From contig JAGIQG010000040.1 in assembly GCA_024679065.1 (NCBI GenBank), positions 5,146,001 to 5,210,000 of the forward strand: 64,000 nt of DNA, written 5' to 3'. A model generated the notes under the pieces. That model made no database searches, was not told the DNA's origin, and worked only from the letters and a program-made list of their open reading frames with translations. Of the stretch, positions 8,750-62,182 are shown piece after piece. The DNA is from Sphyrna mokarran (taxonomy: Eukaryota). The position numbers were made by a program, and so were the translations under genes. How positions within the stretch are numbered: the stretch's first letter is position 1; each line of letters begins with the position of its first letter.

Positions 8750-8795
8750 ATGAGGTCAGCGATTTCTCTCAGTTTGTTGCTGACTTTCCTATCCG
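8750..8795 (+). CDS. IGHV: IgM VH leader exon (MRSAISLSLLLTFLS/G)
   Basis: 46-nt hydrophobic signal-peptide exon with phase-1 donor G|GTGAGT. Confidence 0.93.
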
Positions 8796-8917
8796 GTGAG
8801 TAACTTTTCTTTGTAATTGTCCCAAGTCTCTCACTGTTACTATCTCAATCTTTGTTGCAAAGTCAGCAATCAGTTCACCAGGATTAATCCTCGGGGTTTT
8901 TTGATCTATTTTTCTAG

Positions 8918-9222
8918 GTGTCCAGTCGGAGGTTGTTTTGACTCAGGCAGAGGCAGAAACCGGACGTCCCGGAGGCCCCCTGACCCTGACCTGTAAAACC
9001 AGCGGCTTCGATCTTAGCAGCGCTTACATGCAATGGGTCCGACAGGTTCCCGGACAGGGGCTGGAGTGGCTGCTTTATTACTATAGTTCATCCAGCAACA
9101 ACTACGCCCCAGCGATTAAGGGTCGATTTACTGCGTCCAAAGACACTTCAAACAACATCTTCTCATTGAAGATGACGAGCCTGGAGACCGAAGACACCGC
9201 CATCTATTACTGTGCAAGAGAC
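8918..9222 (+). CDS. IGHV: IgM heavy-chain variable segment exon
   Basis: Acceptor TTTTTCTAG|GT; open frame [19 protein letters not shown]...[10 protein letters not shown]...[13 protein letters not shown]...[13 protein letters not shown]...DTAIYYCAR, typical shark IgM VH. Confidence 0.96.
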
Positions 9223-9261
9223 CACAGCGAGAGGAACCAGGGATGGACCCGGACAAGAACT
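9223..9261 (+). other. VH recombination signal sequence, 23-bp spacer
   Basis: Heptamer CACAGCG 9223-9229, 23 bp, nonamer ACAAGAACT 9253-9261. Confidence 0.92.
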
Positions 9262-9631
9262 GCTCGAAAGGGGGTTCCGCAACTTCCATCATAAGCTGAA
9301 GGTCAGTATCTGTTTTAAATACAGTAATAACGACAGTGATCAGAACCAAAACACAAACCAATTCTGACAAACCCAACTTAGTGAAAATTAAACATTAAAC
9401 CAAAAAAAACACAGCCATAATGAGCTGAGATTTTCACTCTGTTTATATTTACTGTTAACAGTTTCAGCAATTACACACCTGGATATAATGCTCGTTTTAC
9501 TATTTTTGATACTTGGAGGAAGTGTTTCCAGATTGTGTTTTGTTAGCTGCTGTATAAATTTTAAATTACACCGAAATAATGTTCTATTTGAAGTAAATAT
9601 CGAGCGGCAATACTGAACAGAGAGTGAGTGT

Positions 9632-9711
9632 AGTTTTTGTGCGGGTGTGTGTCACTGTGATACTACAGTGGGTCACAGTGCTGAGCACAGCGATATCCTC
9701 ATACAAAAACC
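9632..9711 (+). other. IGHD: IgH D1 segment (ATACTACAGTGGGT, 9660-9673) with 5' 12-RSS and 3' 22-RSS
   Basis: AGTTTTTGT-12-CACTGTG | D | CACAGTG-22-ACAAAAACC. Confidence 0.93.
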
Positions 9712-10023
9712 TCAGGGAAAGAGATTGTTCAAATTGGTAATCAATGCCACAGCAGGATTTCCAAACTAAACGAGGCTTCAATGAAATAATGTATCGAAGT
9801 AATATTAGTTTGTAAAAAGTATCAAAATCTTCCTGTAAAATCTATATTGACCGATGTGCTAAACCTACACATAGAGTTTAAAAGCAATCCGATATCCTTT
9901 ATAAATATAATGACCAGATCAGGCTGAAATAACACACTCATTCGCTCAGGGATCAGGTAGAATCAGGTTTTTGAGAGAGCAGTGGAATTAAATCTCTGTA
10001 TTTCACAGTTAGCAGGTGGGCAC

Positions 10024-58999: not shown

Positions 59000-59300
59000 C
59001 AGTGGCGGCACGGTGGCACTGCAGCCTCACAGTGCAATGGCTTCATGTCACTATCTGTGTGGGGTTTACACATCCCCCCCGTGTCTGTATGGGTTTCCTC
59101 CGGGTGCTCGGGTTTCCTCTCACACTCCAGAGATGTGCGGGTGAGGTTGATTGGCCATGCTAAATTGCCCCTTAGTGTTGGGGGGAGGTGGGGATGGCTA
59201 GTAAGGTAAACAGATGGGATATTGGGGGAAGGGCGGGATTGTGGTCAGCGCAGACTTGATGGGTCAGCTGGCCGACTTCTGCACCGCAGTAAAGTTATGA
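59000..59300 (+). mobile_element. HE1-like SINE
   Basis: GGCGGCACGGTGGCAC head and GGGTTTCCTCCGGGTGCTC core. Confidence 0.8.
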
Positions 59301-60495
59301 TAAGTTGAATGTTTCAACCCAATTTGCCTCAATGTTTTGGAGAAGATAAAGCGATCAATAATCACCACAAAAATAACTGCATGTGGAAGGATTGGAACGT
59401 GATATTGGAAGAGGGGAGAGCGAGTGAGACAAGGTTTGTCTGATGTGGGAAAGAATGTGGAAAACCACTTTGAGAACTGCGTTCTGAACTGTTGCACCGT
59501 AACTATCCCAGCACTACGTTCGTTTTATTTTTGACTGCAAGTGACACAATGGTTTTCCGAGCCGGCTGGTATTGAATTGTAGTTAATGAGAAGTAGCTTT
59601 TTCTATCGCTGGGGACTGCCAACATGCCCTCTGAGCTTTCTTTCCGGGATTTAAGTTTCGAGTTAAAGGAACGGCTGACATTATTCTCTCTTCCAAACAC
59701 CGAGGGTCACAGCTTGTTTAACAAATGATTGCGGATGCGATTGAAGTTAATAATTTTAAACAGAGGTGTCATTGAGAAAAAATCCTGCGTATGTTAGTGG
59801 AAGTGTTTATACTTTAAGATTGTCCAACTGAATGTATAGTGACAGCTGGTATCTTTGCTCGAAAGCATTCAGCTTTTTTTAGGCATATCGTCACATACTC
59901 TATCCTTTCAACTATGGTGAGGATTGCATAACTGACTGTCAGATAGTTGAACGGCAGTGTAACCGCTCCTTCCTTCTCCAACAGATCCTCACTTTTCTCT
60001 TGAATTGGGAGTTTCTCTTCGAACGCCAGGGACGTTGCCAATGTGTCACAAGACAGCCTGGCGCGTCAATCAGCCCCTCCGACATAAAATGCAAAAAAAA
60101 AGTTCAATAATTGGATCAATGACTAATGAGGGTAATCACGCAGTCACGACTGATCCACTCTCCTGATGGTAACGCTTAAATAAACAGACTGATCCCTGAA
60201 TGAAACAAATCCTGGAGCAAGCCTGAGTTTGATGGTCACATTAAACAGAGTCGGATTTGACCGTCACTATCCGGAAAAGGGAAATATTCTCCCCGTTAGG
60301 CACTGACTATTACCCAGCGCTGAGTATTTCCAATCACTGACAGCCAGCTCACCGGCCTGTCTATTCACACTGTCACCGAGAACACCAGGAAGTGAAGTGA
60401 GAACATCCTGAGGCATCAGCAGGTTATTCAGGGCGGGGTTTAGAACCGGTGCCTTCAAAATCCCCAACTCCCCTTTTACAGAGCGGACAGAGACA

Positions 60496-60541
60496 ATGCG
60501 GCTGTTCAGCATCTGGGTTGTGTGGGCAGCATTTCTGACAG
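60496..60541 (+). CDS. TCR V segment 3 leader exon (MRLFSIWVVWAAFLT/D)
   Basis: 46 nt, donor G|GTAAAT. Confidence 0.92.
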
Positions 60542-60658
60542 GTAAATGTGGAGCAAACACATTTCAACTCTTTTTTTACATTTTTGAAACATGTCGTAAA
60601 CCTAAATTTTCACCAGTCGCCGGTCAGTTCTTTTTTATATTTTATTGATCTTTTTCAG

Positions 60659-60965
60659 ATCTAATTCATGGAGATTCTGTCACTCAGTCGCTCTCTTCAG
60701 ATGTTGGGACAGAAGGAGAAGCGGTGACTTTAAACTGTAACTATGATACTTCATTGAGCCCCTACTATCTATACTGGTACCGGCAGCACCCAGACTCACA
60801 GCCTGAGTTTATTTTGTGGAAACATTCGGCAGGCAGTGAAGATAAAGCCGATTTTGCCAAAAGCCGTTTCTCTGCTGAGCTTCAGACTGAGAATAAATTC
60901 ACCAGTTTAACCATCTCGGGTCTGAAGCTGACTGACGTCGCCGTGTATTACTGCGCTATCAGTCT
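60659..60965 (+). CDS. TRAV/TRDV: T-cell receptor alpha/delta variable segment 3
   Basis: DSVTQSLSSDVGTEGEAVTLNCNYDT...LYWYRQHPDSQPEFILW...ADFAKSRFS...LTDVAVYYCAIS; RSS CACAGTG(60966)-23-ACAAAAACC(60996-61004). Confidence 0.92.
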
Positions 60966-62182
60966 CACAGTGATATAAAGCAAACTCAGCCCTGTACAAA
61001 AACCTCCTTTCACTGCAGAGAGCAGCTGTTGTGTGTTAGGGTCTGTGGAGGATTGTAGTAGATGCGGCCGCAATGAGCAGCGAAAGGAAACCAAACTCAC
61101 CTCGAATGTAATTGTTCCCAGGAGAGACTGAGAAAACAAACTTCAGAATTCAATCCGACAAACAGATCATTGCAGAATCGCTTTTGAAGACACCCGTTCT
61201 AAGTCCCGTTCTTAATAATTTGTTCTGTTCCCCCTGGGGTGTTCTCACCTCACTTCCGCGTCTGTCTCTGGTTCTCTGAAGCCAGTTGGTGGTGATTTGG
61301 GTTGACATTGAAAGAGAAATATCCGAGCCTGGCTACAGTCAGTGACCTGATAGGGGAATGGCCGGACTTTCGGAGACTGGGGAGGAGGGAGGGGCGTCCG
61401 GGGAATGTAAGCCTGGTTTGTAGATTGTCATCAGAAAATTCTGATTGTTAGTGTTGACAGGAACCTCACCAAAACAGGCGGTGAGTTACTCGTAGCAGTA
61501 TTCCCAGCCTCTGACATGGTCTTGTAGCTGGTGTGTTTATGTGTGGGAGTCCAGTAGAGTTTCTGGTCAATGGTAACCCGAAGGATGTTGACAAAAAATG
61601 GGGAATTCAGTGATGGTTACGCCATCACTTTTGCTAACAACAAGAAGCTTTCATCTTTTTCCCTCTCTCTTCTCTCTCTCCCTCTCTCTCCCCCTTCTCT
61701 CTCTCTCTCTCTGTGCCTCCCTTTCTTATATCTCATCTCACTCACATTCTGTCCCTCCCATTCACTCTGTCATCCTTGCTGGAGGAGGCTGCAATCAATT
61801 TACCCACGACAGAGCATCTGCCGACAAGACATCAGCTGAAACCTTCCCTGCCTCAAAACCCTCTTTCCTCTGTGTTCCTCGCTGTCTTTCCGAAAGGAAT
61901 CGGATGGGAAACTGATGGGAAAAGATTTGCAGGGCTCCAGGGACAGAGTGGAGGAGTGGGATAGGCTCAGTTGTTTTAGCAGAGAGTCAACATGGGTTGA
62001 ATCGCCTCCTTCATTCTGTGACCGTTCTATGATTGAGACACAAATTTTTATTTGGATGCCAACTTCAATTTCTAGTTTATAAGTGTTCAGAACACCAGCA
62101 ACCTATCCAGGTCCCTCAATACCGACGGTGTAATTAAAAAAAACTGATTATAGTATAATATATATACATATATATATATATG

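Follow-up and report, generated by a model that had tools for sequence, protein, structure and literature searches.

A truncated tandem duplicate of an IgM cluster among TCR alpha/delta V segments in the assembled genome of Sphyrna mokarran

We describe an IgM cluster of Sphyrna mokarran that duplicates in tandem, at 98-99% identity, a complete IgM cluster 58 kb upstream and, as assembled, is cut by a join to zinc-finger/TCR-V sequence. It lies 3' of C-delta on the opposite strand, and its RSSs are compatible with that of D-delta. At a probability of roughly one half, we read it as a bystander duplicate whose VH would reach D-delta only by inversion; as this VH would need inversion to serve T cells, it probably is a bystander and not a co-opted gene. 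The whole stretch analyzed (the window) comprises 64,000 nt of assembly GCA_024679065.1 (contig JAGIQG010000040.1, positions 5,146,001 to 5,210,000, forward strand).

The cluster consists of the following elements:

8750..8795, plus strand: IgH leader exon, GT/AG splice in frame to VH
8918..9261, plus strand: IgM-type VH exon (VH 8918-9222) with 23-RSS; 1 base from the VH of the upstream twin
9632..9711, plus strand: D1 (core 9660-9673), 5' 12-RSS and perfect 3' 22-RSS
10024..10091, plus strand: D2 (core 10052-10063), 12/12 RSS, 3' heptamer CACAACA
10419..10505, plus strand: JH (10458-10505), 5' 23-RSS, donor intact
20065..20364, plus strand: Cmu1 exon, identical in the twin; GT/AG, open
20576..20890, plus strand: Cmu2 exon; GT/AG, open
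21729..22037, plus strand: Cmu3 exon; GT/AG, open, donor intact

Domain calls gave V-set for the VH and C1-set for the Cmu exons, and the leader-VH intron is the same intron that is spliced in contigs of a related organism. The VH (CDR1 [11 protein letters not shown]2 YYSSSSN) is 78% identical to Triakis IgM and 72% to nurse shark IgM, and it groups with IgM VH with a support of 100/100 in a 19-row tree. Cmu1, Cmu2, and Cmu3 are 81, 77, and 86% identical to Triakis IgM, respectively. The VH 23-RSS starts at 9223, with one mismatch in the heptamer and two in the nonamer, and the D2 3' heptamer has one more change from the consensus than that of the twin. A single VH, a pair of D, and one JH are located within ~2 kb with RSS spacers in the order 23 / 12-22 / 12-12 / 23, which is the pattern of elasmobranch IgM miniclusters and is also present in the cluster at C994:5478778-5479982. 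The layout agrees with that given in PMC5192425. Searches by blastn and tblastn using the exons of the upstream twin as queries gave no match for Cmu4, tail, or TM within the window. The splice sites, RSSs, open frames, and exon searches confirm the intact leader-VH-D1-D2-JH-Cmu1-3 without Cmu4, tail, or TM that an earlier note on this DNA had described. As assembled, the cluster is of the IgM class and has no means to encode membrane IgM, as that note also held; it is functional only if the join is an assembly error.

The duplication spans the first third of the window:

737..22102, plus strand: duplicate of the complete upstream IgM cluster, 93.6-98.9% identity in four blocks

The complete twin, with Cmu4, tail, TM1, and TM2, lies 57,885 bases upstream of the window cluster, and its VH has the same strand and the same position in the cluster. 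The duplicated unit extends ~22 kb upstream of the window and takes in a TCR V, and twin and copy are interleaved with TCR V in one stretch without a scaffold gap. Promoter, leader, and VH together differ from the twin at 1 of 851 bases, and leader plus VH at 1 of 352; the one VH base is located in CDR2, where the window copy has four serines ahead of NN, and the D1 cores of the two clusters are identical. The flanks are equally close, with 2 differences in 2000 non-coding bases at 7-9 kb of the window and 0.2-0.7% at 16-22 kb. The Cmu exons differ at 2 of 922 bases, and the region at 20-22 kb overall at 8 of 2000. Since the flanks are as close to the twin as the VH exon, exon-specific constraint is not indicated. 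Purifying selection on the exons of the truncated copy was considered and rejected, as the low P values of the Fisher tests were inflated by the join zone and the mosaic divergence and were not used. The divergence between copy and twin is a mosaic of 0-7%, a pattern not expected from a plain double placement of one sequence. The duplicate is too young to display separate selection. The loss of the C region gave no new V, as the two VH are one base apart.

The cluster ends in the Cmu3-Cmu4 intron, where the sequence continues as follows:

22103..22202, no strand assigned: junction zone, an indel-rich version of the Cmu3-Cmu4 intron of the twin, then a sharp switch to zinc-finger sequence
22203..22498, plus strand: 3' terminal part of a C2H2 zinc-finger gene with its final 3.5 fingers and stop codon
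22203..64000, plus strand: duplicate of the zinc-finger/TCR-V block at C994:6141814 onward, 96.6-98.9% identity

The last fingers begin 165 bases after Cmu3. We propose that a segmental duplication copied the complete IgM cluster in tandem and that the copy would have been cut in this intron by a join to a duplicate of the zinc-finger/TCR-V block, of which two intact versions exist elsewhere. Losing the C end was probably a by-product of segmental duplication and not an adaptation.

The disabling breakpoint reported earlier is visible in the intron, but it may be an assembly error. The join bases resemble an unpolished raw read, and given this poor quality the truncation may not exist. An assembly misjoin, with the cluster complete in the animal, Cmu4-TM collapsed onto the twin, and the contig jumping to the zinc-finger block, is a doubtful alternative but the strongest of those weighed here; the window cluster would then be an ordinary second IgM cluster or a haplotype copy. 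Relative to the twin, the 100 bases at the join show 6 substitutions plus 16 short indels that remove 17 bases and add 4, whereas the 2 kb ahead of the zone have 9 substitutions and are free of indels. The indel count is aligner-dependent, as MAFFT placed 3 indels in the zone and a larger number of substitutions. Across the zone, the twin agrees with a third IgM cluster, so that the zone is no version of a paralogue; copying from either of the two other clusters compared was thereby ruled out. Among 200 paralogue alignment ends surveyed, 27 broke off sharply, 157 continued with no more than 3 indels, and 16 were odd (10 in simple or tandem repeats, two with short homology followed by a sharp break). 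Raw-read-looking ends were found only at the Cmu3/zinc-finger join and one LINE patch (2 ends each), and this rarity favors a misjoin. However, the LINE patch is collinear sequence without any join, and a poor consensus is therefore no proof of one. Nor is the zone a measurable blend of its two sides, since, among 1000 randomly mutated versions of the intron of the twin, 240 scored as well against the zinc-finger side. The zinc-finger gene cut at 22203 is whole in both other copies ~1 Mb away, the assembly places 52,484 bases twice nearby at 100% identity, and the only other Cmu4-less V-D-D-J cluster found is followed by a scaffold gap, all of which point to a misjoin. Conversely, the join contains no N, and no spare Cmu4 of >97% identity was found among the 40 of 44 candidates scored. 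The missing Cmu4 was also sought on unplaced contigs and rejected there, as the matches were only 81-88% identical and thus not those of this cluster. In favor of a real join, both joined halves derive from one few-Mb locus, an outcome that a random chimeric read would rarely produce.

Taking the truncation as real, the window cluster would undergo V-D-D-J joining within itself in B cells, but such joins would be dead ends because no membrane receptor results. One conceivable product is a secreted mu chain of reduced length, in which VDJ-Cmu1-3 is extended by five residues that include no tailpiece cysteine, made by read-through of the Cmu3 donor with poly(A) addition from the captured zinc-finger 3' region. 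Open frames and intact splice sites characterize all three C exons, the read-through adds five codons (GELRD) before a stop at 22052-22054, and poly(A) signals follow (ATTAAA 23219, ATTAAA 23285, AATAAA 23916). We nevertheless consider this product very improbable. A B cell is not selectable on a chain without a membrane form, and with the join zone excluded, conservation of the C exons does not exceed that of the introns. The three-C-domain IgM1gj of nurse shark (PMC5192425) offers a precedent, but it lacks Cmu2 rather than Cmu4 and is germline-joined.

Three long zinc-finger frames separate the Ig and TCR parts of the window:

28574..29689, minus strand: C2H2 zinc-finger frame, 372 aa
35485..36372, minus strand: C2H2 zinc-finger frame, 296 aa
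41011..41886, plus strand: C2H2 zinc-finger frame, 292 aa
49538..50031, plus strand: TCR alpha/delta V with leader and 23-RSS
56840..57330, plus strand: TCR alpha/delta V with leader and 23-RSS
60496..61004, plus strand: TCR alpha/delta V with leader and perfect 23-RSS

The first intact TCR V (49538) lies 27.5 kb after Cmu3, and the leaders and 23-RSSs at 49538, 56840, and 60496 bear out the three intact same-strand TCR V placed ~27 kb after the cluster by the earlier note. Their co-orientation with the cluster, while true, carries no information because nearby V orientation is mixed: of the next 19 RSS-bearing TCR V past the window, 10 have minus-strand orientation. The single N run in the window is no sign of a contiguity break, as the twin block spans it with the same letter count. 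A long receptor like NAR-TCR, made by splicing Cmu3 onto the following TCR V exon, fits in phase but was rejected because this V possesses a leader of its own and lies beyond three intervening zinc-finger genes.

TCR V flank the window cluster on both sides without a scaffold gap, and the scaffold carries D/J/C-delta and J/C-alpha, which places the Ig cluster within the TCR alpha/delta locus as previously suggested. The nearest core is located as follows:

C994:5359603-5381012, minus strand: D-delta, a pair of J, and C-delta, 153-171 kb beyond the window

Its C-delta lies 153 kb beyond the window, and 225,789 bases separate the VH heptamer from the D-delta 12-RSS. The D-delta 5' 12-RSS has a perfect heptamer and one mismatch in the nonamer, and both the VH 23-RSS and the D1 22-RSS are compatible with it under the 12/23 rule, as the note had proposed. 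The note's deletional join to downstream D-delta/J-delta, for which the VH would lie upstream of and co-oriented with D-J-C-delta, fares differently. As assembled, such a join is impossible because the nearest D-J-J-C-delta core is on the minus strand, and a 226-kb inversion is needed; this orientation depends on scaffolding across a 100-N gap at C994:5285474, beside the 52,484 bases placed twice. Annotation of the downstream scaffold gave no co-oriented D/J/C-delta within reach, a result that the note itself had named as refuting its proposal. A plus-strand core at 3.85-3.87 Mb precedes the window VH, plus-strand C-delta downstream occurs from 10.45 Mb on, and J-alpha lies 700 kb before the VH. 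Gap-free sequence 3' of C-delta contains intact inverted TCR V segments, which makes it likely that inversion is used at this locus.

Other VH-like segments are better placed. A complete, co-oriented IgM cluster lies 100 kb upstream of the nearest D-delta, and a divergent TAILV-like segment, 54% identical to the window VH, is located at C994:5389100, 8 kb upstream of the same D-delta. An intact IgM VH-D1 remnant 1.3 Mb away, with its VH at C994:3832635, is co-oriented with a second D-J-J-C-delta core, whose D lies 18 kb downstream of it. No intact co-oriented TCR V is present in the 140 kb preceding this core; the remnant is its nearest intact upstream V and a better donor candidate than the window VH. 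Also outside the window are two C-alpha, as well as NAR-TCR-like clusters that carry C-delta of their own. The C-alpha probe Pfam PF09291 matched nowhere, controls included.

The idea that the C-less cluster is becoming a dedicated VH-delta donor, joining D-delta by inversion, is improbable. In its favor, the VH is undamaged together with its leader and RSS, D1 offers a free and perfect 22-RSS, D-delta carries a near-perfect 12-RSS, the intact inverted TCR V segments suggest that inversion is used, and the D2 3' heptamer drift, one base beyond that of the twin, would favor stalling at VH-D1. However, its own D1 lies 436 bases from the VH and D-delta 226 kb away, the three other segments are better placed, and no selection separate from the twin was seen in so young a duplicate. 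The co-option proposed by the note is unsupported, given a complete twin with the same VH, equally conserved flanks, and a breakpoint that may be an assembly error. Under the bystander reading, VH or VH-D1 would occasionally join D-delta in thymocytes via a 226-kb inversion keeping C-delta, no more than the complete twin could do.

The geometry of the window VH, downstream of C-delta on the opposite strand, is that of human TRDV3, an inverted V-delta 3' of C-delta that joins by inversion; here, in contrast, the V is an IgM VH located 226 kb from D-delta, amid numerous TCR V of either orientation. TAILV (TCR-delta-associated Ig-like V) is a divergent lone VH-like segment adjoining D-delta; the window VH is a typical IgM VH and was ruled out as a TAILV, the TAILV-like gene being that at C994:5389100. 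In the nurse shark TCR-delta locus, an IgH minilocus and TAILV are reportedly the source of Ig-TCR-delta chains, as described by Deiss et al. in 2019. The minilocus and the window both have an IgM-type VH with 23-RSS in cis with D-delta/J-delta/C-delta, but the window cluster is 3' of C-delta and inverted, and no transcript ties its VH to C-delta. The segments upstream of D-delta at C994:5389100, 5465163-5480276, and 3832444 come nearer to the nurse shark picture. PMC12227049 cites TAILV as well as the VH linkage. For the elasmobranch antigen-receptor complex, table S1 of that paper (Flajnik et al. 2025) lists IgM clusters, "IgM pseudo?", and lone "IgMV" amid TCR alpha/delta V, both in stingray and in great white shark. 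These two species and the window locus alike have IgM miniclusters, some incomplete, among TCR alpha/delta V of mixed orientation, on the scaffold that carries IgH and TCR alpha/delta; the table gives gene models only, whereas for the window cluster the two source blocks and the breakpoint itself are resolved. The window cluster is an instance of an already known layout, and its defect may stem from assembly. In catshark and stingray, TCR alpha follows within ~100 kb after C-delta on the same strand (PMC12227049), whereas ~900 kb of V, IgM, and zinc-finger genes separate C-delta and J-alpha here, as assembled. VH-delta is described for frogs, birds, platypus, and coelacanth (PMC7615758). As in the window, an antibody-type V is available to TCR-delta there, but VH-delta are lone V segments, whereas the window VH, one base off a working IgM VH, still has D1, D2, and JH along with three C exons.

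In sharks, joining of IgM/IgW V to TCR-delta D is common (PMC12227049), and IgH partial rearrangement occurs in thymocytes (PMC2435157). The same study reports no rearrangement of nurse shark IgH pseudogenes by Southern blot, which counts against even occasional use. A search for RNA data containing this sequence listed none. Three RNA runs of other organisms (6% word share, 80% likeness) gave V-to-JH joins only, among the joints that the stretch could reveal, which speaks neither for nor against C-delta joining of this VH. A search among longer proteins for VH-bearing C-delta chains yielded 23 matches from 112 candidates, none so named; C-delta was absent in the four short VH-bearing shark proteins read, a weak blank.

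A literature search without the main shark TCR-delta papers found no description of the second TCR-delta core with its VH-D1 remnant, the two C-alpha, or the NAR-TCR-like clusters, and these form a larger lead outside the window. One scaffold might display stages from antibody V to T-cell V, namely a complete IgM cluster, a C-less twin usable by inversion, and an old VH-D1 remnant fused upstream of the second core, itself a duplicate. The last would be a dedicated shark VH-delta locus likened to that of galliform birds but joining via its own IgM D1, a tentative proposal that we think unlikely. As one CDR2 base separates the truncated copy from its twin, a C-delta repertoire could reveal directly whether the loss of C raises T-cell use of an IgH V and whether such joins arise by inversion.

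The immunoglobulin elements described in the earlier note lie where it placed them: a leader, a VH with a 23-RSS, D1 (12/22), D2 (12/12) and JH (23), followed by three constant exons, all open and with GT/AG splice sites. All three TCR V segments were recovered, each with a leader and a 23-RSS, and no Cmu4, tail or TM was found in the window. Being without Cmu4 and TM, the cluster as assembled is not a functional IgM cluster. Its constant exons share 81, 77 and 86% identity with those of Triakis IgM. A 19-row tree, in which we assigned the alpha/delta labels of unlabelled database chains from their C regions, grouped its VH with IgM VH and the window's three V segments with TCR alpha/delta V (100/100 support each). 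These identities point to an elasmobranch of shark type. No RNA run was listed as carrying the window's sequence. Three runs from other organisms (6% word share) contain related IgM in which the leader intron, V-to-JH joins and a JH-to-Cmu1 splice can be recognised; the stretch compared carried no TCR segments and could reveal no chimeric joins, so the comparison is neutral on chimeras. A 1296-base contig in runs X2 and X3, with 84 listed bases on the 3' end of the VH, could be ordinary IgH or a chimeric chain from another organism. That the truncated copy encodes a short secreted chain from its three open exons, with no tail, appears very improbable.

A VH 99% identical to that of the window is located 57,885 bases upstream, in a twin cluster that is complete (Cmu4, secretory tail, TM1 and TM2). 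Window positions 737-22172 match this twin in four blocks at 93.6-98.9% identity, and the duplicated unit begins approximately 22 kb upstream of the window start and takes in a TCR V. Across promoter, leader and VH, 1 of 851 bases differs, a single CDR2 change. Because divergence between the copies is a mosaic (0-7% per kb) without regard to exon borders, this near-identity is not evidence of selection. The JH-Cmu1 intron (window 16400-19100) contains a long low-complexity tract, rich in (CTCA) and in purines, that is common to both copies.

From 22203 onward, the window duplicates, at 96.6-98.9% identity, a zinc-finger/TCR-V block located at C994:6141814 (C994 being the scaffold that holds the window, at 5146001-5210000). 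The first part of that block occurs once more in inverted form, up to 6112710, and the zinc-finger gene, cut in the window, is whole in both other copies. The window thus consists of two duplicates end to end. These two other copies of the block fall within C994:6011363-6290000 and face each other, head to head, across a gap, and the family of the window's first TCR V has 1, 3 and approximately 8 members in the three blocks. A 66-base tandem repeat array at window 45405-47648, shorter in the block at 6141814, reads as long open frames on either strand.

Immediately upstream of the switch, 100 bases resemble the twin's intron in damaged form, with 16 short indels, most of them losses, and 6 substitutions (an aligner-dependent count, MAFFT giving 3 indels and more substitutions), versus 9 substitutions and no indels in the preceding 2 kb. 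Across this zone, the twin agrees with a third IgM cluster. A blend with the zinc-finger side was not measurable, as 240 of 1000 null draws scored equally well. Of 200 paralogue alignment ends, this join and one LINE patch alone were raw-read-like outside simple repeats, and the LINE patch has such letters without any join; we read the damaged letters as technical in origin. An assembly misjoin is a possible, though less likely than not, source of the truncation. In favour of a real join, the two halves derive from a single locus, and no spare Cmu4 above 97% identity turned up among the 40 of 44 candidates scored. Among 24 scaffold VH at ≥64% identity, 21 have a same-strand Cmu4 within 20 kb (paired by eye); the exceptions are the window VH, one before a scaffold gap and a VH-D1 remnant at 3.83 Mb. 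The second of these, at C994:9018881-9020400, is a V-D-D-J cluster assembled without C exons, with a 100-N gap after it.

We examined 1.6 Mb of the 12.3-Mb scaffold in pieces, outside 4.47-4.85 and 5.51-5.90 Mb.

TCR and IgM features (C994 positions)
3072998-3074178 and 4378545-4379646: two C-alpha, each with a J array
4379434, minus: C-alpha, with ~90 J segments up to 4455355 (counted by eye from a table)
3851818-3872597 and 5359603-5381012: two D-J-J-C-delta cores
5359603, minus: TM, and 5362870, minus: C, of the C-delta core (C-delta probes)
5370347 and 5371119, minus: its two J, with 12-RSS
5380996-5381011, minus: its D, with 12/23 RSS
5389096-5389390: divergent, intact VH-like segment resembling TAILV (TCR-delta-associated Ig-like V), perfect 23-RSS, 8 kb upstream of D-delta
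5465163-5480276, minus: complete IgM cluster, co-oriented, ~100 kb upstream of D-delta
10.43-12.31 Mb: eight further C-delta exons, with three more on small contigs C47, C180 and C1271

As assembled, the window sits 3' of C-delta, between C-delta and J-alpha, with its VH in the opposite direction. The earlier note had proposed that this VH, alone or with D1, could join a downstream D-delta by deletion. The RSS are compatible, but the nearest D/J/C-delta core is on the minus strand and a deletional join is impossible as assembled. A head-to-tail pair of a 23- or 22-RSS and a 12-RSS joins by inversion, not deletion; the VH 23-RSS or D1 22-RSS stands head to tail with the D-delta 12-RSS, and the join would therefore invert 225,789 bases and keep C-delta. 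The plus-strand C-delta at 3.87 Mb precedes the window VH, and joining to it would carry the coding joint away on an excised circle. The first plus-strand C-delta downstream is 5.3 Mb away. Shared orientation with TCR V is no signal either, since 10 of the 19 RSS-bearing V between the window end and 5.31 Mb are on the minus strand. Distance and orientation relative to C-delta depend on scaffolding, because 100-N gaps flank this stretch (4986831 and 5285474) and 52,484 bases at 5232990-5285473 recur with 100% identity at 6214120-6266603, each copy ending at a gap, a double placement that is likely an assembly artefact. The assembled orientation is favoured by a tandem repeat that spans the gap and by the twin of the zinc-finger/TCR-V block. 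Co-option of the truncated copy as a donor is improbable, though less so than the short secreted chain.

The C exons of the two C-delta cores are 78% identical, and J-alpha directly follows neither as assembled. Three of the eight C-delta past 10.4 Mb were inspected. Each belongs to a cluster that has its own V segments and is made up of NAR-type V, D, J, supporting V, C-delta and TM, a unit that we take to be NAR-TCR-like; two have a 12-RSS ahead of C. TCR-mu likewise has a cluster layout with its own C. The VH of the IgM cluster at 5465163-5480276 could join D-delta by deletion, judging from its orientation. The TAILV-like segment is 54% identical to the window VH, and the second core has a disrupted copy of it.

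The deletional arrangement proposed for the window exists, as a candidate, at the second core. C994:3832444-3833411 (plus) carries an intact leader-VH with a 23-spaced RSS and D1 with a 12-RSS and a perfect 22-RSS; the match to IgM clusters stops just short of D2, and D2, JH and C are absent. Next comes a copy of the region 5' of D-delta that contains a TCR V and the TAILV-like V, both broken, and beyond these stand D, two J, C-delta and TM. The whole run is on the plus strand and gap-free (C994:3832444-3872597), the D1 22-RSS lying 18,446 bases from D. No intact TCR V turned up in a scan of the 140 kb before the remnant (3.69-3.83 Mb). The remnant's closest paralogues share 80% identity with it. 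Relative to the window VH, the exon has no indels in 291 bases, versus 14 in ~780 bases of three non-coding flanks, and dN/dS is 0.60; some of this constraint may be older than the fusion. By its layout, the remnant is the best candidate VH-delta donor on the scaffold. Nurse shark C-defective clusters and VH-D remnants may be described already in Deiss 2019, Ott 2021, Criscitiello 2010 or their supplements.

In great white shark, IgM, 'IgM pseudo?' and lone 'IgMV' models lie among mixed-orientation TCR alpha/delta V, and stingray has an 'Ig-TCRd V' upstream of C-delta (PMC12227049, table S1). The window is a further example of such interleaving. In sharks, IgM and IgW V are joined to TCR-delta D (PMC12227049; PMC5931798), and other vertebrates have VH-delta and second delta loci of their own (PMC7615758; PMC12698447; for further comparison, PMC5192425 and PMC6795676). 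The window VH differs from a deletional VH-delta donor and would operate like an inverted V-delta. According to PMC2435157, shark IgH miniclusters rearrange within their own cluster, and in thymocytes, where IgH transcripts are absent, most of them show partial rearrangement. The observation behind the earlier note was confirmed, and its interpretation was borne out in part only. Nothing points to selection for loss of the constant region, and we give a probability of about one half to the truncated copy being a bystander duplicate. In B cells, it would be a dead end; in thymocytes, it would be an occasional inversional donor, the same as its complete twin.
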